From the NCBI GenBank assembly GCA_008632985.1, contig QPGO01000203.1:62001-126000 (forward strand): DNA of 64,000 nt, given 5' to 3'. A program made the position numbers and the translations under genes. The notes below the pieces were generated by a model. It was given only the letters and a program-made list of their open reading frames with translations. It did no database searches and was not told the origin of the DNA. This stretch comes from Psammoneis japonica. Its lineage: Eukaryota. Numbering within the stretch: the first letter of the stretch is position 1; each line of letters begins with the position of its first letter. Positions 7,561 to 38,300 of the stretch are shown piece after piece.

Positions 7561-8906
7561 CTAGTTATAGCACCGAGAGATGCGGCACGACGTGTTTCTC
7601 GATCCCGGATTGGATTTTCTGGTTTCCCGCCATTTTCCCTCAATTTCAGCACGTGCTTTCTCTCCAACAATGTCACCCAAAGAATTGCGAAGCATTGCCA
7701 TGTTTTCCTTTAGTGCATGAGCTAAAGCACTCTCTCCAGCACTTCCGTGGTGGTCGTCTTGAACAGAGAAGGCTTTTCCTTGAGGAAGTGGCAAATCAAA
7801 TCAGGCTCTTTTCGCGTGCGCCCCAACACATTTGCCCACAAGGCATCAGGGACCAAAGACTTTCGCAACAAAAAGCTTCCTTTCTTTTTGCAATGATGAC
7901 AATCCTCGATTTCAGTGCATGCATTCTCTCCAACAATGCCAACCAAAAGATGACAAGGCATTGCTGTGTTTTCCTTTAGCGCACGAGCTAAAGCTCTCTC
8001 TCCAGCATCACCACACTGATTTCGCCGGACGCTGAGGAAATTTAGTGTGCGATTCTTTTGCAGCATCTTTCCAAAAGCTCTGGCACCTTTGTCGCCGATT
8101 CGATTGCTGTTGAGTTGCAAACTCCTGGTTCCCTTGTTCTGGGTGAGGCCTTTCCCGATGGCTCTGGCGCCTTCATCGCCTGTGCGATTCATTGAGAGAG
8201 AGAAATGACTGGAGCTTCATCATTCTCGGCAAGTCCCTTGAAAAGCTCTTGTGCACCATCATCTCCAATGTCATTGCCACGCAGAGAAAAACGTTTGACT
8301 GCACGATTTGTTTTCAACATTTCTCCAATGTGCTTTGCGCCCTCGTCGCCAATCTGATGATTGTGGTCAAGCCAGAGCACCTCGACTGAAGTGTTGTTCT
8401 TCAATGCCTCACACAGACACTTGGTGCCAGTTGGGCCAATGTGGTTGAAAGACAGCCCCAACTTTCTCAGCCGTGGCAGAGACGGGATCACTCGGCACAA
8501 CTGGCGCATCTCTTCATCTCCAACAATGTTTGTGGCACTGAGTTCAATCGACTCAACATTCGGAACTCTCTCATCGCCAAGATGTCTTGCAAATCATTTG
8601 AAGACAATGCCATTTTGTCAGAGGTGTCAAAGAGACAAGAAAATGAGTAAGCACCTGAAGAGGTCAGCGAGAGGTTTTCATCAAAGATAACAACAACGAT
8701 GTTGGATTCAGGATGCTTCGACGTTCGACCTTCTGCTTCGACGTTCCAGCAAGTTCGATCGTCGTAAAATCAGCGTAGGAATTGATGCGCGATTTCGCGC
8801 GATTGGATCTGGATCTTTTTCGCTCCAGCAGTTCCGCGGCGCGTCGCGAGGAGTCTGGAGGAGTCTTCGACGTTCGCTTTTTTCCAATCATTTCTTCAGA
8901 AGACAC
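7561..8906 (-). pseudogene. RI-type leucine-rich-repeat (NLRC3-like) gene, frameshifted, TpA-depleted
   Basis: Repeats of L.L..N.IGDEGA..I...L..N in ORFs 8189..8509 and 7722..8192, with a frameshift near 8190. An internal duplication (about 7640-7740 vs 7910-8010) is present. Neither ORF contains Tyr. Confidence 0.8.
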
Positions 8907-8969
8907 ATCACAAACCCACCGACGAGCGGCGGCGTTCTTGTTCTTGCATGGATCCGTTTTGTCGTCTTT

Positions 8970-10322
8970 ATGAAAAGAAAGATGTTTTATCTGCGTGCTT
9001 TGCTGCTGGTTCAGTTACTCCCAATTTTGGCGGCTGGGTTCTCGCTGACAACAACAGCGCGATTCTCATGCGGCTATTCTCGAGTAGTGGGAGAGAGACA
9101 ATGTCATCAACAGTATGCTCCCCAACAACCGCGATTTGCGCTGGTCAGACCAAGAGGCGCTACCGTATTGTCTTTGCTCTTTGCAAATCCAAACGACTCT
9201 TGTAAAAACGATCCTGACGTCTCGAATGAAAGCAACAAAAATAATTGCGCAGATCCGAATGCACACGACAAGCAGAAACATTCAGACCATGCAAAAGACG
9301 ACTCATCACTTCACCGTGCCGTTCATCATCACGTGGAACATCGAGCCTCGGAAAAGGGGGGAATTGAACTGAGTCGACTGGCGGCAGAAAAAGCCATCCA
9401 ATTTGTGGAAAAGGGGCGAGCGATTGATTTGGGATTGGAACGAGCTGCGGAACGATTCGGAGAACGTGCTACAGAAAGGGTGGGAGAGCGAGCGGTAGAG
9501 AGGATTGGAGAGAGAGCTGTGGAGAGAGTGGGAGAAAGTGTGTCGGAACGAATAGGCGAACGTGCGGCGGAGCGTGGGTTGGAACGAGCGGCAGAAAAGA
9601 TTGGAGAAGGGGCAGCTGAAAGAATAGCAGAGAGAGCGGCAGAGAGAGTGGGAGAAAGTGTGTCGGAACGAATAGGAGAAAGAGCGGCGGAGCGTGGCTT
9701 GGAACGAGCGGCAGAAAAGATTGGAGAAGGGGCAGCGGAAAGAATAGCAGAGAGAGCGGCAGAGAGAATAGGCGAACGCGGCACAGAGAGGATAGGAGAA
9801 CGGGTAGCGGAGCATGGATTGGAAAGAGCAGGTGAGAGAATCGGGGAGCGCGCTACTGCGAGGATGGGAGAGAGATCTGCTGAAAGATTTGGGGAGAGAG
9901 CCGCCGAGAGGATTGGAGAGCATACAGTTATTGCTGGACGAAAGAGTTTGAACGGAGTGGCTCGACCGTTGGCTTTGTCTATTCCAGAACGAGTGGCGCT
10001 ACGGATTGGTCGAGGATTGCTTATTGCACTGCCGGCACTTGGAGGTGTGTTTGCCCTGTATCTACTGAAAACAGACAGGGCGAGAGCAGGACTTGAACGG
10101 AAGCGTGGCTCGAAGTTGACCTCCGTGTTGTTTGGTGGAGCTGCTGCGACGGATGCAGTGGACGCTATTTGTCACTTTGCTATCGCTTATGGGGTTTTGC
10201 GCAAATTCTGCCATCATAAACTTGCCCAACTAGAAGAAGTCAGTCTCGGCTGTGCCTTCTTCTCAACACTCTGTGCTGTGGTGGGAGAGATTGTAACTTA
10301 TACAAACAGGAAGAAACGGTGA
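8970..10322 (+). CDS. Unknown protein: signal/transit peptide, ERAAERIG-type repeats, C-terminal TM helices
   Basis: 450-aa ORF with a hydrophobic N-terminus ending ILAAG|F, a 120-bp tandem duplication (9521-9760) and hydrophobic C-terminal segments. Confidence 0.8.
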   Translation: MKRKMFYLRALLLVQLLPILAAGFSLTTTARFSCGYSRVVGERQCHQQYAPQQPRFALVRPRGATVLSLLFANPNDSCKNDPDVSNESNKNNCADPNAHDKQKHSDHAKDDSSLHRAVHHHVEHRASEKGGIELSRLAAEKAIQFVEKGRAIDLGLERAAERFGERATERVGERAVERIGERAVERVGESVSERIGERAAERGLERAAEKIGEGAAERIAERAAERVGESVSERIGERAAERGLERAAEKIGEGAAERIAERAAERIGERGTERIGERVAEHGLERAGERIGERATARMGERSAERFGERAAERIGEHTVIAGRKSLNGVARPLALSIPERVALRIGRGLLIALPALGGVFALYLLKTDRARAGLERKRGSKLTSVLFGGAAATDAVDAICHFAIAYGVLRKFCHHKLAQLEEVSLGCAFFSTLCAVVGEIVTYTNRKKR

Positions 10323-10858
10323 CAACTGCTGAGGGTGGAAGCTTTGTGCGCGTAATACGGTCGACCGCAGCACCAAGGCAGATTTACCTGTTATCGGGAG
10401 GACAAAGAAGCCAACTGTGATGGCCCCGGCACCGGCCAAGTCCTCACCATGGCTTTTGGCCAGACGATCGAGATGTATGTATGTTTGTTTGTTTGATAGA
10501 TCCTCTCTCTATATACTAAAGCTACTTCTCTAGTAGTTACGGTAAACTCTACGCTAGAGCTAGCCTGTAGCTACTCTCTCTAGCTCTCTAGAGAGTAGCT
10601 AGAGAGAAAGATAGCCCATAGACTACCGCGGTAGACGGTAACGATAGAGTGGATGGAATGCGGTGCTTGAACCCGGAGGTCCACGAATCAATCGGTATCA
10701 TAAGTACGTACTTGAAGTACGGAGGACCCAAAAACTGACATGGGATTGAAAGATTGCGCAAGGATTGTGAATTCGCGACACTGGAAACTGGAAACGAAGA
10801 GACAAAAGCTGGAAGCATTGTATTACAAAAAAGAGATGAAAGAAACCGGAGGTCCAAG

Positions 10859-12586
10859 ATGAACGTCCTTACCTTCCTCTTGTTGATGATTGCACTTTAC
10901 ACGGCAGCAGCAACTGCACCCCCTGAATCATTCCCAGTCTGTGTTGGCGTCCGAGGAAATGCGCAGAATCTATGGGTGCACTTTGGTGCTTTAGCTCGCA
11001 TCGTTGAATCGCTTGGACCCATTGACGCAATGTCAGGAGGCTCGTCAGGGACCATCACGACACTTCTAACAGAAAGTATCCAATCGAATCCACTCATTGC
11101 TAATCTCAGTGATCAAGAAAAAGTTCCTCGCATCTCCTTCTTGCTGAAATCGGTTGAAGCCTTCATCGACGTGGACGCCAGAGACATTTTGGAACCATTT
11201 CGGTCGCTTAGTGGTTTGCTGCTTGAAATAAGACAGTCTGGAATCCTTGATCGACTCAGATCAGATGATGATGGCGTTGCTGAATCCGCGGTGGAGGACT
11301 TTCTAGATTTACTTCGAGATTTTGAGAAACGGCCCGGCACGCTTCTGAGCATCGTTCCAAGCATCATAAACCCCTCTGTATTTGCGACGATTCAAAATTC
11401 AACAACTCCAAAAGCACATATTTTGGATATTGTAGAGAATACTGGATTCAGCTTTAACTTGACGTCGCCTGCGGCATTGGTTAGACCCGCGCTGCCCAAC
11501 TGGCAATTTCTTGGCTCCATCGTCGATCTTGCCGCTAGTTTCTACAGTGGATATGAACCGGTCGATCTTGAGGAGATGGAAGTTTTGCTGTCACAATGTG
11601 CAGCCGCTTCGCTCGGAAAAGAGTGGCCGGAAATCAAAGATATCGAATTCAATGTCAACGACACTGTTTTTTATACAACAACAACTTGTGGCGAATACAT
11701 GGAGACCATGTTGGAAGCCTTTCTCAATCTCAAGATTGTTCCTGGAAACCCTTATCCACGCCGGGTCAACGAGCTGGTTGGGTCGGAACACTTGTACAGT
11801 ATTGCTCAGTCGTCTGGTATGAGTGGGGATGGTGTCGCCGTATTTCAAAGAGCCTGGGATGAGTATCTCAATGGTGACTTTAATGGCACATTCTTGGCCG
11901 ACAACATTGACTTCTCGTTTGTCTACTTTGCCTATTGGGGTGAACCAAGCCTCCTGGAACGTATCGGTGAAAACATTGCAAAGTTTTCTGACCTCAAATC
12001 TCAAAAGTTTCGTAACTTGGGTGATGAGACCTGGAATTATGTGCTCGGCCGATCTCCTGCGGAACCAGGAGCTTCTGCTGCAGTCGAATCAGGTCCGGAT
12101 TTTTTGACGACTGGTGGCTGGGCTGATTTAGTACCTGGACAAATATTAGAATCGGCCGGGTGTGAAACAGTAATATTGATTCAGCGTCAAGGAGGAGCTG
12201 GGTCATTTCAGCTACAGGTAGCAAGTATCCTCGGTGCCACCGACGATGAGATTGCAGCTCTCTTTGACTTGGATGAGCCAAACAGTGGTTGGAATGTAGC
12301 CCTCACCACCGCAGATGCCTCTCTTTGCTATGAGGAGAGCTCAGATAGTGTCCGTGGCTTGTTGTCGGAGGGTTGGAATGCACCACTTGTTACTACTGAC
12401 GAAGCGTTGCGTTCGATGTTTCCGGAGGAACTACCAGAAGCTGAGTTGCCAGGGTGCACTCCTCTGATAGACACTAGCACAAACGTTCCGAGGGGGAATC
12501 CTGAAGAATCCTCCGAAGCGCAATCCATGGCCGTGGTTTCCTACTGGCTTCTGCTAGCAGCCCTCCTTCTTCATTTAGCCAAGTGA
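10859..12586 (+). CDS. Secreted, probably GPI-anchored protein with patatin-like GxSxG motif
   Basis: ATG at 10859 starts the signal peptide MNVLTFLLLMIALYTAAA. Motifs CVGVRGN, AMSGGSSG and TGGWAD are present, plus a C-terminal SS...hydrophobic tail. No introns. Confidence 0.75.
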   Translation: MNVLTFLLLMIALYTAAATAPPESFPVCVGVRGNAQNLWVHFGALARIVESLGPIDAMSGGSSGTITTLLTESIQSNPLIANLSDQEKVPRISFLLKSVEAFIDVDARDILEPFRSLSGLLLEIRQSGILDRLRSDDDGVAESAVEDFLDLLRDFEKRPGTLLSIVPSIINPSVFATIQNSTTPKAHILDIVENTGFSFNLTSPAALVRPALPNWQFLGSIVDLAASFYSGYEPVDLEEMEVLLSQCAAASLGKEWPEIKDIEFNVNDTVFYTTTTCGEYMETMLEAFLNLKIVPGNPYPRRVNELVGSEHLYSIAQSSGMSGDGVAVFQRAWDEYLNGDFNGTFLADNIDFSFVYFAYWGEPSLLERIGENIAKFSDLKSQKFRNLGDETWNYVLGRSPAEPGASAAVESGPDFLTTGGWADLVPGQILESAGCETVILIQRQGGAGSFQLQVASILGATDDEIAALFDLDEPNSGWNVALTTADASLCYEESSDSVRGLLSEGWNAPLVTTDEALRSMFPEELPEAELPGCTPLIDTSTNVPRGNPEESSEAQSMAVVSYWLLLAALLLHLAK

Positions 12587-15705: not shown

Positions 15706-15974
15706 CCAGATACAGAACTGGATGGCTAAACTAAGGTACTGTACGGATAAGCCGACGACTAATACATGTATTTGAAACAGTATAAGTGTATCTTGCGTTT
15801 GTTTCAGTTGTCAAAACTCCACCGGTAACGATAGTAAGTTGGCACCGATCCAGCTCCGGATCGCTGGATGGCTCCTTGAAAAGTACCGGCGGGCACGAGT
15901 CAAAAGTTATCAGCCATAAAGTACAAGCGTCTTACATCCACGTAAAATACGACTGTAAGTACAATCACAAATAC

Positions 15975-18672: not shown

Positions 18673-21168
18673 TCATCTGACAAATATGTCACGCTTTTCT
18701 TTCTTTCTCTGGGCCACATATCCTGGATCGTTCGTCATTGCCCAAAAGAAATGATGACGCCTCTCCTCCACCCACCAGTTTTTGTTGCTCCCTCTCAGGT
18801 TGGCGCCGTTTGTAGTTGTCTTTGAATATCTGTCTCTCCAATTTGGGTTGATTCTGTCCTTTACCGACACCGGTTTCATGGGGGGTTCCGAAGGGGGTCC
18901 CGTGGCTGATGTGGATGCGTCATATTGGCTACTAGGTGTTGTTCTCGGCCGCGAATGATGCCGTCTCGGATCACGATTCTTGTAATTCCTCCAGTAGTCC
19001 ATTCGGTCGTTGTAGTGGCTGCGGCCTTTTCCATGGCTCGTTTTATGACCTGACCAAGTGCGCCAGTGATAATTGCTCCACCTACCGTGCTTCCCCTTGT
19101 GCCAATTGTAGTGATTCCAACCCTTCCCTCTGCCCTTTCCTTTGCCGCGGCCTCTTCCATACTTGGGACAAGAATACACCCATTTGTACCAACGTATTTT
19201 ATTTCTCCAATAGACAGGTTGCAGGCGGTAGCCGCAACCCTCACGTTTTTGTTGACCGGCGGGTTTTGGCGTAGGTTTGTTAGTGCATCTAAAGGAAGTT
19301 GGTCTCCTTGTCGGCGTCCGAGATGGAAATAACGGATATAGTGTCGGCTCTTCAGTCGGTGACTCCACTATCGGCTCATCTGTGGTTGGCGACTTTTCTG
19401 CTGGGGTTGGTTTCGCGGACGGCTCAACAGTCGGTGGCGCTGTTGATTCTTCAGAGGGCGCCATCGTTGCATCGATTGGTGTGGGTTCTGATGTCGGTTG
19501 CTCTGCCGTTGTTGATTCTTCAGAGGGCGCCATCGTTGCATCGATTGGTGTGGGTTCTGCTGTCGGTTGCTCTGTCGTTGTTGATTCTGCAGTGGGCCCC
19601 ATCGTTGCTTCGTTGGGTGTGGGTTCTGCTGTCGGCTCCGTCGTCGCCTCTCCAGAACGACTCGGTGCCAATGTCGTTTCCTCTGTGGGTATCGTTGTTG
19701 ATTCTGCAGTGGGCCCCACCGTTGCTTCGATTGGTGTGGGTTCTGATGTTGGCTCCGTCGTCGCCCCTTCCATTGTGGGGGTTCCTGTCGGAATTGGCGT
19801 TGTTGAAGATACCGTAGGATTTTCGGTAACCCCAGATGCATTGGGTGATTCTGTAGGACTTTCGGTAACCTCGGTGGTTTGCTTCTCGGTTGGAAATGGT
19901 GTTTGTTCCGGGGTAGGTTCTGGGGTTGGTGCCGGAGTGACCTCAGTGGTTTGCTTCTCGGTTGGAAATGGTGTTTGTTCCGGGGTAGGTTCTGGGGTTG
20001 GTGCCGGAGTGACCTCGGTGGTTTGCTTCTCGGTCGGAAATGGTGTTGGTTCCGGGGTAGGTTCTGGAGTTGGTGCAGGAGTGACCTCAGTGGTTTGCTT
20101 CTCGGTCGGAAATGGTGTTGGTTCCGGTGTTGGTGCCGGAGTGATTAGCGGTGTCGGCGGGGGAGTTTCTTCGCGCGTTGGAGAAGAAGTTGAGCCTCGG
20201 ACTGGGTTTGTCGGCTCCGATGTCGGTGCAAGGGTTGAAGATATAGTGGGTGAAGGAGTTTCCTCTGGTGATGGCGGCGGTGTTGGGGATATCGTTGGAC
20301 TCGGCGTGGGCTCAGGAGTTGGAAGGGGCGTCGGGGGCGGCGTTGCAGCTATTGTCGGAGAAGGAGTAGCTAATGTTGGTGGAGGTGTTGGGGGTATTGT
20401 TGGTTCTGGCGTGGGTGGAGGAGTTGGAGGCTCTGTGGGAGATGGTGTCGACAAAGTAGGTTCAGGTGTCGGCGGCGCAGTTGGAGGTGGAGTCTGCTGT
20501 GGTGTTGGAGTTCTGGTTTCACTACAGCATTCTCCTATTCTCCCGAACTCCTTCACCTGGTCACAGGTGAATCCGCTATTGTCTCTGTTGCCATTGAACT
20601 CTAACTCACCGCAGTCAGTAGCAACTTCATCGCCGTCTACCCTCAACACTACCATTTTTTGTGTATTCGGGACGACTTGACCCCCTGGTTCGTCACATAT
20701 ACGGCAGGATCCCGGAACAGTTCTGGTGTTTGCACATCCACAATATATCCCGATTGTATTGTGTATAGCATCGCATGTTTGGGACGTGGTAGCGACATCA
20801 CTGTAGCCAATTCCTCCCCATTCGATACAGCGACGCTCGAACGTGACAAGTCTCAGCAAATCAGGCACGTTACTTCCGTCTTCGCATAAGTCACAGAATT
20901 CCTTTTCTGGAGTACACCCGCAAACTTTTACCCCTGCGTAAAATGCAGATTTGCATTCCGACTCTGTAAGCCCCCCTCTCCCAATGAGTTCTTGATATTG
21001 ACTGCACGTCAAGGTGTCGCCGGGGAAAAGTAGAACGTCATTGAACGCAGGGTCGATAAGAGTACCGTCAGGGCATAGCGTTGAACATTGGCCGTTCACA
21101 GCAGTACGGAAAAGACTTGATATAGAAACCAAAAAGAATATGTTCGCCTCGAAGCGCCGCAATCCCAT
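18673..21168 (-). CDS. Secreted mucin-like protein: Cys-rich N-terminal domains, Pro/Thr/Glu repeats, basic aromatic tail
   Basis: ATG at 21168 (MGLRRFEANIFFLVSISSL...), CxxCxDG and CGC modules, TPEPT/PTEKQTTEVTPAP repeats, and a C-terminal G/K/R/W/Y/H-rich region. Confidence 0.85.
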   Translation of the reverse strand: MGLRRFEANIFFLVSISSLFRTAVNGQCSTLCPDGTLIDPAFNDVLLFPGDTLTCSQYQELIGRGGLTESECKSAFYAGVKVCGCTPEKEFCDLCEDGSNVPDLLRLVTFERRCIEWGGIGYSDVATTSQTCDAIHNTIGIYCGCANTRTVPGSCRICDEPGGQVVPNTQKMVVLRVDGDEVATDCGELEFNGNRDNSGFTCDQVKEFGRIGECCSETRTPTPQQTPPPTAPPTPEPTLSTPSPTEPPTPPPTPEPTIPPTPPPTLATPSPTIAATPPPTPLPTPEPTPSPTISPTPPPSPEETPSPTISSTLAPTSEPTNPVRGSTSSPTREETPPPTPLITPAPTPEPTPFPTEKQTTEVTPAPTPEPTPEPTPFPTEKQTTEVTPAPTPEPTPEQTPFPTEKQTTEVTPAPTPEPTPEQTPFPTEKQTTEVTESPTESPNASGVTENPTVSSTTPIPTGTPTMEGATTEPTSEPTPIEATVGPTAESTTIPTEETTLAPSRSGEATTEPTAEPTPNEATMGPTAESTTTEQPTAEPTPIDATMAPSEESTTAEQPTSEPTPIDATMAPSEESTAPPTVEPSAKPTPAEKSPTTDEPIVESPTEEPTLYPLFPSRTPTRRPTSFRCTNKPTPKPAGQQKREGCGYRLQPVYWRNKIRWYKWVYSCPKYGRGRGKGKGRGKGWNHYNWHKGKHGRWSNYHWRTWSGHKTSHGKGRSHYNDRMDYWRNYKNRDPRRHHSRPRTTPSSQYDASTSATGPPSEPPMKPVSVKDRINPNWRDRYSKTTTNGANLRGSNKNWWVEERRHHFFWAMTNDPGYVAQRKKEKRDIFVR

Positions 21169-21720
21169 CTTGACACCCCGTTGTTGACAGCAATGTTCTT
21201 GCAAAATCGAATTTTGGAAGAGATATGGAAGGGTAAACAGCTTGAAAAATGATTCCCTGCATCGCGCATAACATAACAGAGGCAATCTGGAATCCTGCGA
21301 AAAAGAGGCAGGCTGTGCACGACTTAACAGGTCATTCTTCAAAGTATTTATTGGGCGTTTATTTAACCGAAGTCATAAGTGTACATAGGGGCGGACAGGT
21401 GAGATCATGAAAAAGGTCACACGTGACATCATCCGTTCCGCGTTGTGCCTCATCATCACATCTTGAATCTCTGTTTCAAACATCGCTCTCTCCACTCTCC
21501 AGAGAGAGTAGCTCTCTCTCTACTCTCTACCTAGATTCGAAAGTAGGTACAGTACGTGTGTAGTACGCTCTACTAGAGAGAGCTGAGTCACGGAGAAAGG
21601 AGAAGAAGAATAGTCTTCGGTCTCAAGTCATCCAATGGCGTCTCACATGACCACCCAAAACACGAGGATCCTGGTTACCGACGCGAGTTTTCGCTCCAAC
21701 TTGAGAAAGAATTCCACATT

Positions 21721-22578
21721 CTATTGATTGTGCTTGCCGTCGACGTTCTCCTTGGCGAATCGGATCAACTCCTCAGCAACTTGCGCTCGAATGCCGCCAT
21801 CAATCAACATTGCGCAGAGCAGCGTGGAGGTGGCTGCGAACGATTCAAGGGTCATGTCCAACACTGCCATATCCTCCAACGACTGGATTTCTGTATCCGT
21901 AAGAGAGCAGAATAGCTCGTGGCTCCGTATCAAATCTCGAACGATAAAGCATGAGTCACTATTATTGGATGCTTCAGCCATGGATGGTGGTACGGATGGC
22001 GGCGTTTCGTCCCCCACTGCTAACCTTACTTGTTGTCATGTGAGACGTGGCCTGTAAGTCTCCATTCTCACTCAAAACGGGATCATCGACTGGAAACATT
22101 ATATCGGTTCGCAAGATGTACTTTTTTTTCCAAACTTGAGTGGTATGCTGGCGTGATACAGATCGTGTTCAAAGACAACCACTCTCCAGTTTGAGGCGTA
22201 ACCATTGTGCAGCAAGAAGACTGATTGTTCCTTGATCCGCACTTCCCGCCGATGCATGCTGATGACGATGTAGTAGTCGACACGTGATGGTTCAAGTATT
22301 GCGTCTCGCCACCATCAAAATTGACTCCGTTTCCATCATTAAGATAAAGCAACACCGTCAAGAGAGACTGCGTCTTGTTGGGTAGGAATGTAGTTGCATC
22401 AAAATGTGGCTCAAATCGATCGTCCTTGTCCGCATCATACTTTAGTAAACAGAACTTTGGATTCAGACCACAAGGCTTCTTTCCAAATCGTTTCGTCAGA
22501 ACAGCATCCAGATGCTCGAGATTCTTGAGTTTCTGCCACAGCAAATTGAGCATGGATGGGTTATAAAAGACTGCCAAT
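21721..22578 (-). pseudogene. 2OG-Fe(II) oxygenase (prolyl-4-hydroxylase-like) copy 1, 5'-truncated and frameshifted
   Basis: Near-identical to 26672-27520. FEPHFDATT...LLYLNDG...GGET is retained. Indels lie near 22185, 22125 and 22040, and homology ends at about 22578. Confidence 0.9.
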
Positions 22579-26107: not shown

Positions 26108-26500
26108 GGTCCTCTTCTTCCCCTCCACTCTACTTACAGTAGAGAGAATTTTACAGCAGCTCTAGAACCCTACTGTAGACCCTACTCCTGGACACACACA
26201 CGCTTCGCGGACATCATTGGCAGATACAACACTAACTGCAGCTGAAATAAGGCTAAAGAACATGTACACGGCCACGGTTATGTCCAGATTCTTGAATAAT
26301 GTCTGGAGTCCTGCTGCGTAGGTCCAGAAGACAGTGCTGCCGGGAAAAGAAAGGCACGTCGGGTCGCAGAACTGGACCCCGGTTCTGGATAGAGAGCGCA
26401 TTGCCTGACTCTAAGGGTCCTCTTCTTCCCCTCCTGCCCCTAGACAAACACACACATTTCGCGGGCATCTTTAGCAACTACAATACTGCTCTACTCTAGA
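26108..26500. repeat. Dispersed non-coding repeat starting GGTCCTCTTCTTCCC (one full and one partial copy)
   Basis: Matches 46466-46730. The head motif also occurs at 26416 and 28357. Confidence 0.85.
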
Positions 26501-26671
26501 GAGAGCTGAGTCACGGAGAAACGAGAAGAAGAATAGTCTTCGGTCTCAAGTCATCCAATGGCGTCACACGTGACAACCCAAACACTCGCGGGTTCTGGTT
26601 ACCGACGCGAGTTTTTGCTCCTCCGAAACGTCAAAGAAAATAACTTTGAAAAAGAATAATGATTCCACGTT

Positions 26672-27999
26672 CTATTGACCGTGCTTGCCCTTGACAGTCT
26701 TTTTTGCGACACGGATCAACTCCTCCGCAACCTGCGCTCGAATACCACCATCAATCAACATTGCGCAGAGCAACTTCGAGGCGGCTGCAAACGATTCAAG
26801 GGTCATGTCCAAAACGGCCATATCCTCCAACGACTGGATTTCTGTATCCGTAAGAGAGCAGAATAGTTTTTGGCTCCGTATTAAATCTCGAACGACAAAG
26901 ATATCACTATTTGATGCTTCAGCCACGGATGGTGGTACGGATGGCGGCGTTTCGTCCCCACTGCTAACCTTACTTGTTGTCATGTTGGGCGTGGCCTGTA
27001 AGTCTCCATTCTCACTCAAAGCAGGGCCGTCCACTGGAAACATTACATCGGTTCGCAAGATGTACTTTGTCCCAAACTTGAGAGGTATGCTTGCGTGGTA
27101 CAAATCGTGTTCAAAGACAACCACCCGACCAGTTTGAGGCATAACCATTGTGCAGCAACGAGAGTGATTGTTCCTTGATTCACACTTGCCACCAACACAT
27201 GCTGATGACGATGTAGTACTGGACACGTGATGGTTCAAGTATTGGGTTTCGCCACCATCAAAATCGACTCCGTTTCCATCATTCAGGTAAAGCAACACGG
27301 TCAAGAGGGACTGCGTCTTGTTGGGTAGGAATGTAGTTGCATCAAAATGTGGCTCAAATCGATCGTCCTTGTCCGCATCATACTTGAGTACACGCAACTT
27401 TGGATTCAAACCACAAGGCTTCTTTCCAAATCGTTTCGTCAGAACAGCATCCAGATGCTCTAGATTCTTGAGTTTCTGCCACAGCAAATTGAGCATGGAT
27501 GGGTTATAAAAGACTGCCAATTGATGGGGATTCGGATTCTGAATCTTTACAATATACTTTGACCCATCCATGGCTGTATGAGTAGCCTCCGTCACGTACT
27601 GAAAACCGGTTTGCGATGCCAACTTTATTAGTTCTCTGCACGTTTCCGCTGAAACAAAACTACTCACAGAAAAAGCAACAGAATCACTAGGGTTCTTCAA
27701 ATATCTCGAACATCTTGCTGGAAGTCGTATACTGTCCCAACCATGTACTGTTCTTCTTCTTCTTCGTTTTCTTCTTCGTTTTGATCTTGAGTAGAAGTCA
27801 GCGGACACGTTAAATTCAGCAGCTTCATCAAGGCGTCATGGGTGTTCACCGACGTAGTGGTACTGCTGATTGTACTTGACGATTCCTCGCCAGTCAACGA
27901 TGAGCTATCCTTTAAATTCTCTCTATCTCCATCGACCACTCTTATATTTTCAACCACAACGCAATCTCTTCTTGCGCTTTCGAGATGTTTCTCCACCAT
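26672..27999 (-). CDS. 2OG-Fe(II) oxygenase (P4H-like) copy 2; catalytic domain intact, frameshift near 27750
   Basis: HFD...H...R motif (FEPHFDA; FEHDLYHAS; KYILRTDVMF). The N-terminus MVEKHLES (27999) is out of frame here but contiguous in copy 3. Confidence 0.8.
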
Positions 28000-30070
28000 G
28001 GTTGATCTCCAGAATAAATTGTGTGAAAAAATGAGTGGAAGCTGGGGGACGTCTTCGGAAGTGAGACTGTCGAAGAAAGTTACGTAGAATTTGTACTAAA
28101 ACAGTCTGTCAATCAGTGCGATTGGGTATTTGGGACCTCTGGACAGATCCTACGTGTTTTCTTGTGCGTACAAATTGTACTGGGAAAACCCCCAAACGCA
28201 CTGGCGATCAGACCGCCTTCGACGCTCTCACTTCCAAAGACGCCCCCCAAAGCGCAGAAAGAGCGAGCGAATGAAAGGGTGGACGGACCGTGAAGCACGC
28301 GAACCTATGAATGGTACGCATTGCAATGGCACCCCTGCGATTGCGAGTGCGAACGTGGTCCTCTTCTTCCCGTCCACTCTAGCTCTGGCAGCCAGCAGTA
28401 GAGACTTTTCAGAAGTTCTGCTGGCTTCAGCACATTCATTCACGAATCTGATTCACGATGATTCACAGGGATGTGAAGAGGAATCACCACACAATTTGCA
28501 TCTTTGGAGCATCTTGTTCTTGTCCCCTGCTGCACCTGTCCTCCTCTCTGTGCTGCTGTGTTGTGCAACCTCAAGAGAGGTGCCAGCACCCTTCGTCTTC
28601 CATGTGAATCCTTGTGTCCCAAGTGGCTGCGAGACACTGGCCAGCAATGCACATGCCAGCAATCTCACAGCATGGCTTTTGCTGCCGCCAACCATCTCAG
28701 TGACATCCCACCCAACAGCAATCTTCTGCATTGCAGTCCTTCATTCCTCAGCAATTGGCATCTGTGCATTCTTGTGCTTGTGGGCTGTCTTCTGTGCATT
28801 TTGTGAGCCCCACGGAGAAGCATGTCTGCTGCTGGTGATCTCGCCACACTTGAAAGTTGATCTGGAAACCCTTGAGAAGTTTGCCAAAGCCTTTGCAGCT
28901 GCAGGCTCACTTCTGACACTCCTCCAAGTCTTTCAACACCCAACTGCAGTGGAAACCACATGTCCCATGGTGCTCATTCATGCAGTTCTTGATCAACTGA
29001 CCAGCACAACAGACCATCATCTCAGCACACTCATGGTGCTCATCCGCGCAGTTCTTGATCAACTGACCAGCACAAAATGACCATCATCTCAGCACACACA
29101 TGCCTCCTGCTGCTGCTTGATTTCAGCATCATCATCCAAGTGCTTTCAATTTAAGTTGGAGCAACCCCTTTTGTGACAAACTTGCACACCACTGGCTGCC
29201 TTGAAGCTGAGCAAACAGACTGAGCTGTCCAACAACCCAGGAAGTGCCAAACTGAACAAAGGTCATTTTGTCATGACTGTCCAAGACCTCGTCAAGTCTG
29301 GCAAGAAACCTTTTGTCATCTCAAGGACATTGATCGCAAAGCAGCACATTTGTCCAACTGTCTTTGTGCCTTTGCAGATTGTGACCTCCTTGACTGTCTT
29401 TGGAGTGCTGCACCTCCATTTGGTGCAGAAATGTGGTTTGTTGTTGTCATGTGCAGTGCAAAGAGGAGTTGCTTCACAACTTGCATCTCTTCAGAGCATC
29501 ATTGATCCTTGTGTCCCAAGCAGCCTCCAGCTTCAAGCTTGCTCATCCTTGCCAAAGCATTGCCAAATGCTCACAAAGCTTGCACAGCTGGACCATGTGT
29601 TTGCAAAAATGAGACAACCACCATGATCACCCACCCTCCCATTCTTGTGAGTGCCACGACAAGACAGCCCATCACAACAAGAGCCTTGTGGGCAATCAAA
29701 GATTGGGGCATGCTTGGTGGCATGGTCGCCCAATGCAATGATGCTTTGTGCTCTGACCTGTGATCACAATGATGTGCTCTCTCTCAAATGAACAAACAGA
29801 ATTGGCACAGCCAATTCTCTGTCAGATGTGACAAACAAAAAACAAGAGTGGCCAAGGTGGAGCTGCTGGTTCGGACATTTGTCCAATGTTCAACAAATGG
29901 CAGAAACAACAACATTGGCACCAAAGTCAGGAGCAGGACTTTCGTGGTGGCTTCATCAGCAGCCAGCTGCTGTTGTTGACATGGTTGAGGTTGTTGCATT
30001 AAAAAGATCCAAGTGGTGGAGGAGGACAGGCAAGTGGGCTTGATTGATTGTTTTTTTTTCATGTCAGCTC

Positions 30071-30072
<2 letters not shown>

Positions 30073-30106
<34 letters not shown>

Positions 30107-30126
30107 NGGGGGGGGGGGGGGGGGGG
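30073..30126. repeat. (CT)n microsatellite, an N and a poly-G run (probable assembly join)
   Basis: Seen directly, with N at 30107. A second (AG)n lies at about 36092-36113. Confidence 0.9.
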
Positions 30127-31959
30127 TGAGATGTGAAGATTGCAGCAAGACAAGAGGTTGCCAAGTTGCGTGATCGATGGCACACACCCTCCATTTGTTG
30201 CTCTGTGTTTGTCAGAACTTTGCATCCCACTCCCTCTTGAGGATGTGTGCTTTGGGTCCAGCATGGGCTGAGGATTCCATCAAAGGTCAAGCAGGTGGCA
30301 GAAACAAGCACACCACATGCTGTTGACACCATGGCAGCAGGAAGACTCTGAGAGTCATGTCCAAACAATTGTTCTCATTGGTTTTTGGAGGCAGAGAGGG
30401 ACAAGGGGAGCCAGCAAGCACAGTTGGGGCATGTGGCTGTGAGGACATCATTTTGCAGATTGCAGAGAATGGTGAAAAGCTGTCTGTGCCAGCAATTCAA
30501 AGACAGAGGGTGCGCTCATTGTCCCCAGCAGTTGCCACATGCTGCTGTGAGTTGTGCCAATGGCACACACAAACACACAACTGGTTTTGACAAACAACCA
30601 AAACATCATGAAAAAAAGAGAAAGAACATGACAGTGGGTCAGCAAAGTGGTGGCAAGAAAGGCACAAGTCAAACTTGCAGCTGGGGGGCAGAGAGCAGCT
30701 GTTGCAACTTGCAGGCTGACAAAGCAGCATGTTTCTTCAACAACATTTTTTCACTGCCCTCCCCTTTCTCCTGACTCCTGTTGTTGGGATTTCATGGCTT
30801 GATGGCTGCTGATCTGCGCTGGTCTTGCCAATCCCTGAGCTCACTGCATGGTGGATTGCAAACTCTGCTCCATGCCAGTTGTCATGTTGCCCTGGTGCAG
30901 AAGCCAAAAAGTGAGCATGAGACCCACCTTCTTTATGATGAGCTTCCCCAAGATTGCTTTGTCAATCTCTGACATGGTTGCACCACCCAATGGATGTTCA
31001 GGCTCCTCCACAACATTTTCTGAGATGCCAGTGCCTGCATCTCTAGCCTGAACTTAGAACACTCTTCTGACAGTGTTGGGTGTCAGATCGTCACACAACA
31101 GGTGCGGAGTTGTAGAGCACAACGTCTCACACACCATGGTGGTGCATCATTTTTTGTGTCAGCATCAGTTGTTCACAGTTCGTTCACGGTGTGTGCAAGC
31201 AAATCTACAATGGTCTGGCCACCTCTGCACGCAACATTTTCATCTGTGTGACACAGAACAGTGAGGAAAGCTTGTGTGACAGATGATGTTGAGTTTGGGC
31301 AATGCAATTTTCTCATGTTCATCACCTGCAAAAGGAAAAGGGGGGAAGGAGGGGATTCAACCATTTGAGCACACAAAAATTGACCATGTGGTCAGGGCCA
31401 GAGTTTTGTTGGCTTCTTCCATGTCATCTGGGGTGGGATTGCTGCAGGCTCAAAAGGTGTGGGTGCACATTGCAACTTTTTAGGGTGGCCCACCCTGAGG
31501 GTGTGCCACCAAGCTGAGCACCCCAGCTTGGTTTTTGCCCAAACCCCAGGCCAGCTGCCAGCCCCAGGAGGTGCTCTTCTCCCAGTGTGGTTTGGCTGTT
31601 CTCAAGCTGCACCACATTGATTCAAAGCCTGCTGCTGCACATGGGAAGGGCCAGAGGGAGAAGAAAAACATGCAAGTTTTGGCTGCTTGCTTTGGACCTT
31701 GTGTTGGTCATGAGCAAGCTGCATGACAAGACAGACACATGTCACACTGTTTGTCTTGCAGCTCCAGGAGCCTGCATCATTCTCAAGTTTGATGTGTCTC
31801 ATCTGGCAGCTTGGCAGCTTGGCAGACTTTCTTTGTTGCAGCCTGGCAAGTCATGGGGTGGGTGGCGCTGTTGTCAAGAGCCACTCCTCTGCAGGAGAGG
31901 GACAGGCACAGAAAAGTTTTGCAGGAGCTCTTCTGCCAATCAATGGCCAGTCAGGGCAG

Positions 31960-33120
31960 ACCAGACTGTGGAGATTTTCTTTTGATGAAAGCCAAGCAGC
32001 CACAGCAAGAGAACAATCATCAATGGCCGCAGCAGCCTGGGCAGTGGGATTTTCCTTTGATGATGGAAAAGCCAAGCAGCCACAGCAAGAGAAGATGCTT
32101 TTGTGATGGAGCATCAAATGGACAAAGCCTGGGTGTGCAAAGAGTTGTTTGCCCCAGCTCCAGCAAGCCATGTGCTCCAAAGGTGACACTGCACACATGT
32201 TTGTGCACCAACATGCCTCTTGTTTCAGGCCCTGTGTGTTGATGAGCAAGCTTCTGAGAGAAGAGTGAGAGGTGCAGCTGCATCACTGTGTGATGCTGGA
32301 GAGACTCATTGCAGCTGATGCATCTCAGGTTTCATGCTCAGCATGATGCTCAGTGACTCTTCTTGGGCCCAACCTCACTCAGAGCTTCTTTGTGTCAACA
32401 ACAAATTTTTCCACAGCACTGACAAAACAGCTTGAGGAAGCCTGCATGGAACAGGAGCTCTGACCAGCAGCTCTGGCTTTGACTTGAGGGTGGGATCTTC
32501 ACAGCTGTGGCATCTGTCAAGCTGGCTCTCTCAATTGTGAGGGGCTGTGGTCATGTGTGGGGTTGGGCAGTGCAGCCAGTTTGCTTGCACTCCTCATTGA
32601 TCATGGCACAAAGCACTGTGTCACATCTGCAAAGATGAGGGTGACTCTTGTGGGTGCTGGGCTGGTGTTCTGAAGGTCTGGGTGCACCCCCTGGGACACT
32701 GAGGAAGGGCTCAGCATTGTGCTGGCAGCAGCAGCTTGGCATGCAGTCTTGGCTGCAGCTTGGTGTGTGGGCAGCACTGTTGCTGCCAGGAGCTGGTCTG
32801 TGGGAGGAGGGGGGGAAGCAGGCAGAAAACTTTTTCTGGAGCCATTTTGTCAGTGGTGAGGATGGCCTGGACACTGAGGATTTTTGATGGAAGCCAAGCA
32901 GCCACCACAAGAGAAGATGATTGTGATTGAGCATCTGATGGACAAACAAGCCCAGGCACAGAGAGCTGTCTGCACTTGGTTCCAGCAAGCAGAGTGCTCC
33001 AAAGGCAACACCTTGTGTGTGCACTTGTGTGCCAACAAGCTTCAAGCTGTGAGTCACAAAAAAGCCACCAACCTCCATGAGTGCAGCAAGTCTTTGGTGT
33101 GCTGTGTTTGCCTCTGTTGA
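31960..33120 (+). pseudogene. Decayed gene with duplicated CCCH-zinc-finger-like segment
   Basis: About 31970-32220 and 32875-33045 are similar. The second reads AVCTWFQQAECSKGNT, like C-x7-C-x5-C-x3-H. Confidence 0.4.
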
Positions 33121-33299
33121 GTGTGGATTGAAAGGAGGCTGCAAATTTGAGATGAGTTGACTCATCTTTGCAAAAAACAAGGTGTGCATCATCCGCTTTG
33201 ATGGGACGCCAATGCAAAAATCTTAAAACCAGCACTGTTGCAAGCACTGGACAGAAAGAGAAACCCAACCAAAGTCATTTCAAAATGAACATAAAAATG

Positions 33300-35950
33300 C
33301 TGCAGTTGACTGGCACTGAGCAAAATGCATTGATGATTTTGCCCTTGACATCCTGTTTTGCTTGTTTGACTTCACTTGTGCCCAAACTCTGCATGAGAGC
33401 AAAAATGTCACTCAAGGCTCATCACCACCCCACTTGGCTTCATTCACTTTCAAGTCAAAAACAGCAATGGGTTGTGAAGTTTGTCATCAACTGGCCACCA
33501 ACATGAAAATTTCTTTGTCTGTGTTTGTGACAAATCGGAGTGGTGGTCACTGCTGTCAAAAATGCCTCTCTGTGTGGTGAGTCACATTGCTTTGGCAATC
33601 CATTCTCAGATCCAGCTGGGTGGAGCAAGTCTGCCACACACTTCTTGTCCCACCCATCATTGATGAGAGCAGCCTTGGCTGCCTTCCCTCCATCAGCTTC
33701 TGTCACATGAAGCCCTCTGATGGCATTTGGTTCTGAAAACTGTGCAAGCTTTTCAAGGGAGTTTGCCATGGTTGAACAAAACTGCTCCAGTTGAGAAACA
33801 GGCAGAAGCCTCAATTTCATTCAAGATGCTGTGAATGGCTGTGTGCTGTGTTGCATTGGAACAGTGACACATGTTGAGGCCCTGCAATTGTTGGCGACAG
33901 TTTTGATTGTCAGCTGTGATCAAGAAAAAAAGCAACTATTCCATTGAGCAACATGCTCACCCCAAATCCCAAAGCAGAGTTGGGCAACATGGGCATGCTG
34001 TGTCTCACACTTGTCCACTGCCCATGCTTTAGAAAGTTCAAGTCAAAATTGCTTGTCATGCCCAAATCCACAGACAAATCCAAAAAGAGCCAGTGTGTCC
34101 ATCTTGCTGTGTTGTCCATTCCATGGGGGCAAAACATGCAAGCCCACCAGATTGATCTGTGGGTGCATTGGCATGTTTGAGGCAAGTGCAACATCTCACT
34201 GTTTGAGTTGTGATCCATGCACAGCTGAAAAGCAAAACATGTTCTGTCTCACATGTTTGGCATTTGCTGGAACTTCATTGTCTTGATGCAGTTGCTCATG
34301 TCAAACAGCAACACCTTTGTGCCCCATGATGCATCCAAAATTGACATGTCTTTTTTGACAATGAGTGCTCTGCAAGGCTCCACTTGATGAAATTGCATGC
34401 TGAAGCCATCAATCTTGAGCTCTGCACAGACTTGGGGGTCATCAGATTGATGATGCACAGCAGATCTGTCTCTGAATGTCACAAAAGGCACTTCTGTTTT
34501 TGATTTTCTTTGGTGGAGATGTGTCCTGTCCAAGTCCCATGCCAAGCTGCTTTCTCACAAAAAAGGGGCTGCCTGCTGGCAGCCTTTTCTTCACCAGTGC
34601 ATGGAGACAACACTGGCAGCTCCAAAGACATCAAAAGCAGCAGCAAGGAGCCTTTTCTCCTGTGCAATGCTCCCTCAATTGACATGCTTTCACAAGCCAG
34701 CTGCTTGTTCCTGCAGAGCCAACATCATGAAAACAACTCTGTTGCTCATCTGACAGGCTGAAAGGTGCTTGGATGTCATGTCAATGTCAACATGCCCTGC
34801 CATTGATCCAAGGCAAGTCAATGATGGGTCAAGCAGCTGACAAAACGAGGATTCTTTGATTGGCAAATGAGGCACATGGCATTGCATGATGGAGTGGAGA
34901 GCTTTTGCCCTGTGCTGTGGGTCCTGCATCCCTGGTTGTGGCAGCCCAACACATGATCCATTGCCCATTGGTCTGTGCATGTCGACATGGGGCAGAGGCA
35001 GCAGTGGTGTTTGGGCCAAAACACCAACACTCCACCACTCTTCAACATGCATGCAGCCAATGACTGGCCAACAAGGCATTGTCCTTCCAAGTGCACACTT
35101 GTCTGCCCCCTGGTCCACCTGCTCTTTGCTTGTTGCTTGGGTCAACATCACCATTGTCAGTGTGTTCTTGAGTGTTTTGACAGCCTTTTTTGTGGGGGTT
35201 TTTGTTGCCAGAACATTGTGGAAAAGAACAAACAAAACACCACTTTTTCCAAATGCAATGAGCACAGCTGCCATGAACTCTGCCACAATGCTGCTCCCAT
35301 GCCTGTCTGGACAAAAGAGAACAGCAAGCCTCACTTCTTTGGGCAGGTTTGATGATGACTCATTGGCCTTGGTTTCGTGCTGGCAATCAATGGGTTGGTG
35401 TGGCAACTCATGTTTTCACCAAATGGCTTGCAAGCTTGTGGATGATGAAGCTCTGCATCTTGCCATTGACCACATGCATTGTTCAGAGCTGCTGGTGATG
35501 TGGCCAGTCAGACATGAAACATCAGCTCATCAAATGTCCCTTCTTCCTGCCACCAGACAAGGACAGTCAGGAACCATCCATTGAGCTGACAGCATTGACA
35601 TTGAAAGAGGGGTCATTGATGACTCTCCTCTTGGCAAAGATTGTGCAGACATTGGTGGTGCACTGGTGCAACACAAGAAACAGCAGCCTCTCCAGAGACA
35701 ATGACCAAGCAAGAATGTGAGCAGCTGTGGAGAATCATCTGCTGGCTTCAGCCAGTGTGCCCCTGCAGAATTCTGCAGGCGAATGAGTTCAACATGTCAG
35801 CCGCACTCAGATCATGATGTCAACAAGGTGTCAAGAAATCTTTGCACACCCCTTGGATCTTTTAACCCAACAACTTCAACCACACACAAACAACAGCAGC
35901 CATCAGATGATGAAGCCACCAGGACAAAAATCTCATTCTCCTGACTTTGG
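33300..35950 (-). pseudogene. Hypermutated relic of a long unknown gene (VEEWW and GHVDIDMTS motifs)
   Basis: Chain of minus-strand ORF pieces (34690..35406, 34249..34545, 33910..34218, 33455..33820). The 5' part is paralogous to 37800-38070. Confidence 0.45.
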
Positions 35951-37559
35951 TCAATGTTGCTGTGCCTGCCATTCACTGAAAAAATGGCTGGACAAACATC
36001 CAAATGAGTGGCTCTGCCTCAGATGCTTGTGTCTTTTTGCATGTCACACGTGGTGGAAAATCAGCTGTGCTGATTCTGTCTGTTTGTTCAAGAGAGAGAG
36101 AGAGAGAGAGAGAGCAGAGCCTTGCCTTTGCAGGTCTCAAAGCAGCCCCCAGTTCTGACAGGAGCACATTGAGTCAAAGCATCGTTGACTTCACTCTCTT
36201 TTGACTCCAGCACCAACAGAATGAATGAGAGCTGCCACATCAGAAAATGGAGCTGAGTGATCAAGAGACAGCACTCTCTGATGTGGGGTGCCAACAATCT
36301 CTGGGAACATCTTGTCCCCCACAGCCAAGGGTCCCTGGCTCAAAACTGAGCATGCACTCTGCTCTTGATCCAAGACATTGCCATCTTGACAAGTCTAAAA
36401 TTGTGAGAAATTTGGAAACAACAAAAGCCAGTCAGCCAGTTTTGACAAATTTCCACCTCTGCATGACACAAGTGGTGGTCTTGCTCATGGGCACTCCCAA
36501 ATTCTGAGCATTGTTTGCCTCATTTTCCTCTCCACTCAAGTGCTCTCACAAACAATGTGTGCCAAGTTTGATTTTTCTCTTCTCTAAAATTTTGTGCCTG
36601 TGGCTCACCTTTTGCATTTGCGCTGTTGCACCAGTCACCAGTGCTGCAGCTGGCTTCTCATTGAAGACTCTCTCATTGAAGACTCCCTGGAGACACAAGC
36701 TCCAGTCCTGCACAATGCACAAAACAAAACACTCCATCTTTTGAGCACAACTTGCATCAGCTTCATGTGCTGAGGCTGTTCATCAAAGACACTTGTGTGT
36801 TCTGGCTTTTGCATTTGATTGGAGCATCGGTGCTCAGACATTTTTTTCCCATTTTTGTTCAAGTTTTCACAGGGTGCACTGTGTCACAAATTTTTTCTGA
36901 AGAAACAATGCAGCTGGCTGCACATCAGCACACTCCCATTGCAGAGAATTTTGCATTGCAAGCAGATCACTGCTGTGAAACACATGTGCAGAAACATTTT
37001 GTGTCAACCTCCAAACATGCAATGACACATGAATCTTCAAAAATTTTGGTTCAAATCATCCTCTGTGTTGCAACTCTCATTTCCCACAATGAAAAAATGT
37101 TGATTGCACACAAAAACAACAACATTGTGACACTGAGACACAAGTCTCATCAGTGTTGCAAAACATCAGAATTTGGACAAATCCACACTTTTGGCAGTGA
37201 AAGCTTGTTTGCAAGTCAGAGACCCCATGCAAAAATTTTGCAAATGTTGTTTTTGAGCACCACTGAGCTCACAACAGCAAAGTCATCAAGCAACAAACAT
37301 GCAAACAATCACCAACAGAAAATGAGGCAATTTTGCAAACATGTCTCCTCTCCCCCACATTTGAAGCACATCATTTCCATTTTTTCCCTGGGTGCACTCT
37401 TTGGACATTGAAGAGTGTGCCCAGCCTGTTTTTGCCACTGTGAGTGAAGAAAACAGAAAGTCTTTGAAACAGGCAGAAGACCCCACACACAGAAATTGTG
37501 TGATCCAAAACACTCTCCTGACATGTCACAGCCAGCACAGCAGTGTGAGCCCCCACCTG

Positions 37560-38300
37560 GAGCTGGAGTGTGTCTGACACACAAAGAAGTGACAAGAGCA
37601 ACTCATGAAGAGCATCTCACATGGGGCAAGATTTCAATGATGTCCTTGAAGCAACGGGGGAAAGGAGATCTGGTGGTGAAGATGACACAACACAGTGCTG
37701 CTGCTGCTGTGATTTGTTGGGAACTCACAAAGGAGCAGCAGATGCGATGGGCACTTGGCTTCATGCAGCAGCCAACAGGTTGGCACGACAACATGCCACA
37801 TCTTGGTTGCCATTGACAACAGATGTTCCTTCCTGCCACACCAGACGAGGACAGCCAGGAACCATCCCTTGAGCCAACAGCATGGACATTGAAAGAGGGG
37901 CCATCGATGTCCTTTTTTAAAAAAAGATCGTGCGGACATTAGTGGTGTGTTGGCACGACAAAAAGAAATGATGGCCTCCCTTGATTCGACCACGCGAAAA
38001 TAATGTGAGCGGGAAAGGTTCAGTACACCCCCCGTACAGTACGTAGAATTCTACAGGCGAATCTTTGAGGTCAACACTGAAAACAGTATGGTAGGCTCTG
38101 GTATGTTCATATCGGTACAATTGTCAGTACGTAGAAGCGAACGATGTTGCCCGGTAAGTGACGTTGTCTTTCCGGAATACAATATACGGGGACAAAGAAT
38201 AATAAACAAAATTGAAAATTTGAAATCAGAAGTTCTTCCTCCACCGACAAGACTAACTGACGACCTGAAGCATGATGCACATCATGGCACTTTGTACGGA
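37560..38300 (-). pseudogene. Paralog of 35400-35950 straddling the right edge of the depleted domain
   Basis: Clear nucleotide alignment of 37825-38062 with 35540-35784. SPVEFY vs SPAEFC and TTNVRTIF vs TTNVCTIF. Confidence 0.7.

Follow-up and report, generated by a model that had tools for sequence, protein, structure and literature searches.

Hypermutation of A:T to G:C that is specific to TpA has been described, as far as we could find, in a single preprint on the rhizarian alga Bigelowiella natans. According to the accessible part of that source, integrated DNA of nucleocytoplasmic large DNA viruses and of virophages is hypermutated at TpA in this alga, with a roughly 1000-fold per-generation rate and activity in only some lines, TpA-poor clusters are enriched for transposon domains, and ADAT2 is proposed, not shown, as the enzyme (Mettrop et al., bioRxiv 10.64898/2026.01.13.699255). 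In the same part, the main text contains no flank analysis and no diatom. A literature search, with subscription journals mostly outside its coverage, returned no other report of TpA-specific hypermutation and none for diatoms. Here we describe the loss of TpA in the diatom Psammoneis japonica (assembly of 91.4 Mb, 597 contigs), in a 64,000-nucleotide stretch of contig QPGO01000203.1 (the window) with three TpA-depleted domains (7570-8647, 28400-37917 and 62800-64000), and in related repeats elsewhere in the genome. The eIF2-gamma of the assembly, 85-92% identical to top matches among which are records from Seminavis, Nitzschia and Mayamaea, places it with the diatoms, probably the pennate ones. 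We are highly confident that a targeted mutator changes TpA to TpG on one strand or the other (read as TG or CA), in single events that follow insertion and depend on the flanking bases, within silent-looking domains of repeats and pseudogenes.

All three features of the B. natans process that could be tested are found here: almost only A:T to G:C transitions, restriction to TpA on both strands, and confinement to regions, seen as sharp domain edges and discrete repeat regions. Unlike in B. natans, the host is a diatom, the process strikes copia elements, other repeats and a duplicated host gene, the loss is near saturation with later CpG decay, and the affected share of the genome is far larger. 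In 19 arbitrary 10-kb stretches cut into 500-base bins, 150 of 380 bins (~40%) had five TA or fewer, and 91 of these also had ten CG or fewer. The diatom process has the same core signature as that of B. natans and is of a recently described kind; its flank code and the diatom host are newly described. A large share of this genome has been altered by the process, which disables retroelements by missense changes, not by stops.

Fungal repeat-induced point mutation (RIP) changes C to T and creates TpA and stop codons; its transitions are confined to target regions and to particular dinucleotides, fall on both strands and ruin the repeats. The diatom process is likewise region-targeted, dinucleotide-specific and ruinous to repeats, but here TpA and stops are removed. 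The pattern expected of RIP, C to T at CpA with TpA raised, is absent: the observed/expected ratio (O/E) of TA is near 0 and that of CA/TG about 2.

Surviving TpA sites in the depleted domains

The features of the window are as follows.

7570..8647, minus strand: decayed leucine-rich repeat (LRR) gene copy, TpA-depleted, CpG mostly kept (Pfam LRR_6 matches at 7722-8216 and 8189-8593)
7709..8047, no strand: five surviving TA (7711, 7723, 7977, 7989, 8043), every one TTTA/TAAA (direct reading)
26708..28042, minus strand: control, 2-oxoglutarate (2OG)-Fe(II) oxygenase gene region adjoining the large domain, TpA intact (Pfam)
28400..37917, no strand: old domain in which decayed repeats are nested (TA O/E 0-0.08, CG O/E 0.01-0.21, CA/TG ~1.5-2.1)
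29777..30110, minus strand: end of a multi-copy element (~810 bp) with survivor 30000, ATTAAA (copy comparison)
31040..31230, no strand: less-hit patch with 4 TA and 6 CG (direct reading)
35847..36106, plus strand: second end of the ~810-bp element family, with survivor 35863, TTTAAC (copy comparison)
62800..64000, no strand: third depleted domain, extending to the contig end, with 10 survivors, 8 of them TTA/TAA and 3 TTTA/TAAA (direct reading)

CpG is largely retained in the first domain and also gone from the second (the big block). A first-pass annotation had reported that the TpA sites still present are mostly TTTA or TAAA, and every site that it listed exists, within 1-3 bases of the position given. 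In the LRR copy the flanks are TTTAG or CTAAA; 7711 and 7723 are the same two positions as 7977 and 7989 in a duplicated LRR unit, so that the copy supplies three independent contexts and not five. Survivors in the big block include 29152, 30000, 30934, 31481, 33224, 33292, 34030, 35863, 36396 and 36585, plus 37918 (TTTAAA), together with the exceptions already listed in the annotation, at 33937 (ACTATT) and at 31044, 31055, 31113 and 31206. Overall, TTTA/TAAA accounted for 19 of the 31 survivors in the depleted domains and for 234 of the 2084 TA in the rest of the window (Fisher p 6e-11), which confirms the observation in the annotation. By domain the share was 5/5 (7700-8640), 11/16 (28400-37925) and 3/10 (62800-64000), the enrichment in the last taken alone being not significant (p 0.09).

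The same enrichment was found at 41 loci outside the window (135/241 survivors against 180/1144) and in the largest set, 146 kb of old domain that includes the window (240/390 against 1338/10346); these sets were de-duplicated by exact 32-mers only, and homologous repeat copies in them are partly dependent. Such flanks surround just 14-15% of the CA and TG in the big block and 15% in the largest set, which argues that the enrichment does not come from local composition. Nor is A/T-richness the cause: AATA/TATT ranks with the contexts that lost most TA, with 7 survivors against 1501 outside (retained 0.008), and the other all-A/T hexamers left 0 against 404. Local composition is ruled out as an explanation by the CA/TG flank frequency, and A/T-richness or melting by the AATA/TATT counts. 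A rule of YTAR alone (Y, pyrimidine; R, purine) is incomplete, as TTTA/TAAA is retained at 0.32 and other YTAR at 0.13 in old domains. The proposal that TA is spared next to an A/T-tract consequently held for the TTTA/TAAA polarity and failed for AATA/TATT and the other all-A/T hexamers. Retention by length of the A-run after T was 0.04, 0.16, 0.33, 0.42, 1.19 and 0.56 for runs of 1 to 6 or more, the long classes being possibly inflated by newly arisen TA.

The exceptions are less anomalous than they look. The four survivors of the 31040-31230 patch (TCTAGC, CTTAGA, TGTAGA, TCTACA) each have a T two bases upstream or an A two bases downstream, and their hazards, predicted from the model described below, are 0.97-1.12 against a background median of 2.18, that is, moderately slow contexts. 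Survivor 33937 lies in a fast context and a homologue has TG there; it may be a newly arisen TA.

Comparison with homologues indicated what replaced the missing TA. Sixteen TA shared by two intact paralogues of the LRR copy (L002 and L003) correspond in the window to 10 CA, 3 TG and 3 TA, the kept ones being 3 of 5 TTTA/TAAA sites and 0 of 11 others, while 18 of 23 CG common to the paralogues were kept. Positions 7977, 7989 and 8043 are TA in both paralogues and are thus old survivors. For the big block, 7761 of 9801 bases (28300-38100) had homologues among the fetched loci; at 115 places with TA in the homologue the window has CA 45, TG 38, TA 4 and other 28, and all four kept TA are TTTA/TAAA (4/38 against 0/77 others). 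Survivor 30000 is TA in most copies of the ~810-bp element, of which an unhit copy (L034) has 13 TA over 29777-30110 where the window has 1; survivor 35863 is common to the less-hit copies of the family. The control gene region kept 45 of 49 TA relative to a 93% identical copy (L028), with 2 CA, 1 AA and 1 gap. Dispersed duplicates of this 2OG-oxygenase region (21711-22564, 26235-28014 and 45618-46729; 87-97%) have TA intact, so that being a repeat is not sufficient for being hit.

A base-calling artefact is unlikely, since contigs of a public sequencing run (possibly the source sample) agree with the big block, with 0-5 differences per 475-1106 bases. At 35417-35418 a contig of run X1 has TG in place of the window's CA, a single site with an opposite outcome in each of two haplotypes. 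TAA and TAG are almost gone from the big block, and a change of TpA to TG or CA is unable to create a new stop. Tyrosine makes up 0.1-1.2% of the residues of long copia frames (a rough count, overlapping frames included), compared with 2.0-3.8% for six host frames.

A strand-resolved flank code in young copia families

Mutations in progress were analyzed in two copia families, family 1 with 19 aligned copies (192 of 214 TA-bearing sites kept) and family 2 with 20, namely the query and 19 of the 24 matches of nearly full length (122 sites kept), sites of unclear polarity being excluded in both. Mean survival in families 1 and 2 was 0.80 (18 sites) and 0.77 (13 sites) for TTTA/TAAA, 0.59 (25) and 0.60 (19) for other YTAR, and 0.42 (149) and 0.31 (90) for non-YTAR; the direct test of TTTA/TAAA against other YTAR was significant in family 1 (p 0.002) and not in family 2 (p 0.13). 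Both strands are hit, with TG 728 and CA 1130 in one family and TG 602 and CA 831 in the other, and 151 of 214 family-1 sites have both outcomes, which indicates largely independent hits. Transversions at TA were 0 in 871 and 1 in 480 copy-sites. Private A to G changes per 1000 were 2.5-3.2 at CpA, 1.9-2.3 at GpA and 2.6 at ApA; CpA and ApA have no excess over GpA and the target is therefore strictly TpA. Away from TpA and CpG, private A to G (1.9-3.2 per 1000) exceeds G to A (0.7-1.6) in both families, an unusual GC-ward bias that may be a leak of the mutator or reverse transcriptase (RT) error.

Long terminal repeats (LTRs) are identical at insertion, so that the differences now found at TA between the two LTRs of a copy post-date it. 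Nineteen LTR pairs differed at 180 TA-type sites, 25 CG and 10 others. In them 212 of 548 TA site-copies were hit, a rate ~200-fold per base above other sites, against 25 of 770 CG, i.e., TA loss is ~12-15 times CpG loss per site. LTR dating and gene calling in depleted domains will be distorted. The losses were uneven, 128 in 3' LTRs against 20 in 5' LTRs, with the 5' region largely spared in 11 of 18 copies. In the L055 family (L086-L103) the 5' LTR and leader are often spared with the 3' LTR hit, L092 being the reverse; several family-2 copies have one unhit end, and domain edges fall inside elements.

The flank effects were estimated per adenine by a competing-risk fit on 314 sites of both families, with bootstrap intervals and positions counted outward from the TA step. 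A pyrimidine 3' of the step is favoured 2.3-2.7 times over A or G (+1 C 2.66, 2.10-3.54; +1 T 2.33; +1 G 1.08), and a following AA, giving TAAA, multiplies the hazard by a further 0.25 (0.09-0.45), a non-additive term (0.23-0.26). At +2, C or T gives ~1.5, G 1.82 and A ~0.6, with a ratio of 0.66 for the G of a CpG. Upstream T is unfavourable at -1 (0.62), -2 (0.45, 0.34-0.52) and -3 (0.72), and so is the C of a CpG at -2 (0.31, 0.23-0.39, against 1.07 for other C), with 1.03 for the CpG C at -3. Positions -4 and +4 and local GC had no effect in the fit. The code agrees between families and is unchanged by a synonymous-site covariate (term 1.2). A TTTA/TAAA site survives because the adenines of both strands sit in slow contexts, and this motif stands at the far end of a broader rule, resolved by strand, in which TAY is favoured and TAAA, upstream T and upstream CpG are disfavoured.

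A simpler version of the model, fitted on young copies only, predicted the old survivors out of sample: the TTTA/TAAA share was 0.657 predicted and 0.615 observed, and the other shares 0.157/0.149 (one TAY), 0.141/0.228 (other YTAR) and 0.045/0.008 (RTAY). The hexamer survival check proposed in the annotation gave a context-dependent result, with a Spearman correlation of -0.60 over 132 hexamers between the young-copy model and old-domain survival. Its claim of context-dependent survival, as opposed to neutral drift, was borne out, TTTA/TAAA sites being hit less in the before/after comparisons.

Hit and unhit sites lie in tracts (0.598 against 0.523) and successive hits had no same-strand clustering in either family (0.516 against 0.522+/-0.010; 0.506 against 0.511+/-0.012). 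Within elements CpG loss tracks the tracts of TA loss (13/327 against 8/515, p 0.04; per-copy rho 0.49 and 0.55), TA survival has no trend with distance to CpG, and hairpin stems and loops did not affect hits (stem term 0.93, 0.74-1.08). We claim no strand bias, the TG/CA ratio being 0.85 on antisense-oriented alignments here and 0.79 on sense-oriented metagenomic ones, i.e., opposite. Editing at reverse transcription or in a single processive burst is ruled out by the hits on both strands, the missing clustering and the hits in a host-gene copy.

A set of 80 metagenomic relatives of the copia RT contained one family of 35 (31 non-redundant; including L198, L208, L250 and L252), with RT ~57-67% identical, that has the same kind of loss, TA to TG or CA. 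L198 and L252 differ at 120 or more TA sites and share none; other families keep TA, among the matches listed. Over 182-183 sites the pyrimidine effect (+1 C/T 2.2-2.7) and the AA term (0.29-0.34) are as in the diatom, but T at -2 has no effect (1.11), the +2 effects are reversed and TTTA/TAAA survives no better than other contexts (0.54, 12 sites, p 0.39). The TAY and TAAA terms are common to both, and the upstream terms behind the prominence of TTTA/TAAA in the diatom are lineage-specific, which favours readout by a protein over DNA physics alone. The flank code is a direct test for candidate enzymes: TA hit, CA and AA not, TAY favoured, TAAA avoided, no same-strand clusters.

The mutator and its alternatives

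As the agent we favour, with a probability of roughly 0.5, a zinc-dependent adenine deaminase that has the TadA/ADAT2 fold. Such an enzyme would be recruited to heterochromatin with putative CG methylation (transposable elements are CG-methylated in P. tricornutum, according to the part of PMC9998398 consulted) and would convert deoxyadenosine to deoxyinosine, to be read as G at replication. It would read T-A-Y directly on duplex or briefly opened DNA, acting slowly over many generations by repeated single events within methylated, silent domains. A short A-run would resist opening, and a C5-methyl group at -2, of T or of 5-methylcytosine (5mC), may hinder the enzyme: T and the C of CpG are both slow at -2, which suggests a methyl clash and agrees with the CpG-G ratio at +2. 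Elements would be ruined by missense changes (Tyr to His or Cys) with stops read through, the inverse of RIP. Natural adenine editing of DNA with strict TA specificity would also interest base-editing engineers.

Known deaminases fit in part, as judged from the portions of the sources consulted. TadA-derived adenine base editors (ABEs) share the A to G change, the 5' T and the favoured 3' pyrimidine, ABE3.1 preferring YAC and ABE8e-YA YAY over YAR (PMC12528748). They differ in editing CpA and in needing single strands that are exposed. In the diatom CpA stays at the background rate and no hairpin or single-strand preference was seen, so that the TadA/ABE likeness raised in the annotation holds only in part. 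Amphioxus ADAT2/3 is a natural eukaryotic case of deamination of DNA adenine, and also of C in TCG (PMC10354150); the diatom ADAT2 likewise has the key asparagine, but none of the amphioxus preferences (GAA, hairpin loops, C in TCG) was seen here. In P. japonica, PF00383 gave 9 matches (dCMP deaminase, TadA-like, ADAT2-like, RibD-like and two others, the labels being our own assignment) and PF14437 gave 5, at the PF00383 loci. The ADAT2-like gene (G000:C26, locus L081) has the HxE motif as HAE, PCxxC and the DNA-permissive asparagine of GCRNDRFGG. An exact protein look-up and a look-alike search gave no match. At L080 (G000:C79:87006-90176) a single frame contains both a deaminase and a 2OG-Fe(II) oxygenase domain.

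Several points weigh against this deaminase. CpA is not hit (2.5-3.2 against 1.9-2.3 per 1000 at GpA), while TadA editors edit YA, and the amphioxus enzyme prefers adenine in GAA and in hairpin loops (PMC10354150, in part), stems here being without effect. The methyl idea fails at -3 (CpG C 1.03 against T 0.72), and T at -2 is neutral in the second organism (1.11). Processive single-strand deaminases leave same-strand clusters, which are missing here. ADAT2 is a housekeeping tRNA enzyme, A to G is indistinguishable by sequence from T to C on the opposite strand, and nothing stands out as the culprit gene among the deaminase, editase, methylase and IMS matches. The copia copies are also partly of common ancestry and their sites not fully independent. 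Beyond the deaminase itself, we advance only tentatively, as possible and not probable, a natural chromatin-guided editor of double-stranded DNA at TpA, strictly excluding CpA and sensing C5-methyl at -2, as an inverse-RIP defence that B. natans, P. japonica and one or more other microbial eukaryotes would share, each lineage with a flank code of its own.

An enzyme of a different class that flips bases out of the duplex at the self-complementary TpA is unlikely but deserves attention. Within a target 5'-R-T-A it would either methylate the adenine or modify the thymine, making it C-like by oxidation or amination, and it is possibly a diverged C5-methyltransferase-like or ADAR-fold protein. The independent hits on both strands, the lowering of both strands by a pair at +/-2 and the dose response to the A-run agree with it, as do 27 DNA_methylase (PF00145) matches, 6 of them fetched, and two editase-domain (PF02137) genes. 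In the parts of the sources consulted, UNG-like flipping follows TA-step flexibility (PMC9995336) and pairs in A-tracts open slowly (PMC3025553). A profile search for Tet_JBP (PF12851) gave no match, with the control silent too. We know of no chemistry for T to C in DNA of this kind, which counts against base flipping. ADAR on DNA/RNA hybrids does share A to G after T, but it prefers TAG (PMC5389660, in part), which is slow here (+1 G 1.07 against +1 C 2.63). The two editase-domain (ADAT1/ADAR-fold) genes, at G000:C40 (L164) and G000:C79 (L165/L166), have catalytic motifs that look intact, and the scanned frames showed no RNA-binding domain; the ESM Atlas returned "editase domain" for one and nothing for the other. 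C5-methyltransferase frames were found at G000:C301 (L173) and C297, one inside a TA-depleted domain.

Error-prone gap filling by a polymerase of the eta/iota type while deaminated 5mC is repaired, with G placed opposite template T at TA, is improbable. Transitions at TA, the co-located CpG loss and 6 matches to the IMS family (PF00817) would suit it, and pol eta also gives A to G after T; but its hotspots are WA (W, A or T; PMC6423074, in part) and ApA here is at background (2.6 per 1000), so that this signature, which the annotation had proposed for comparison, fails. Also against gap filling are the lack of transversions and of same-strand patches, survival independent of the distance to CpG, and a TA loss that exceeds the supposed trigger, CpG loss, by ~12-15 times per site. 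The third signature proposed there, Vsr, corrects T:G to C:G inside the Dcm motif, which does not require TpA.

A mutator that sees only TpA, with flank effects due to passive DNA physics (A-tract rigidity, opening rates), is more doubtful still as a general account. The TAAA term is non-additive and conserved in the second organism, and protection rises with run length, so that physics is probably right for this term only. It should match across organisms, yet T at -2 gives 0.45 in one and 1.11 in the other, the +2 effects are reversed and metagenomic TTTA/TAAA sites survive no better. Of the flanking-base or DNA-shape preference suggested in the annotation, the first stands as a strand-resolved code and pure shape is weakened by the missing upstream-T effect in the second organism.

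The reading of survivors as new TA (arisen at poly(A)/target-site junctions, through slippage or by mutation at a later time), as composition drift or as an assembly artefact is largely refuted and very remote: in young copies some TA of low frequency do look new, 33937 is TG in a homologue and the long A-run classes may be inflated, but survivors are shared with unhit homologues (LRR 3 of 3 testable; block 4), young copies differ directly in survival, public-run contigs match and genes beside the domain keep TA.

Other observations in the window

Pfam gave no match in the 16 open frames tested in the 28400-37917 block and none in 62800-64000. Long frames at 8691-10322 and 18673-21372, with coding repeats of 24/120 and 69/72 nt, also had no Pfam match. 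At 30073-30127 a (CT)17 run, a single N and a run of G follow one another, which probably marks a join made in assembly. A ~5-kb tandem duplicate (54100-56800 and 59340-61960) has a GC-rich part that is TA-poor, with two TA to TG differences (55944 and 55955).

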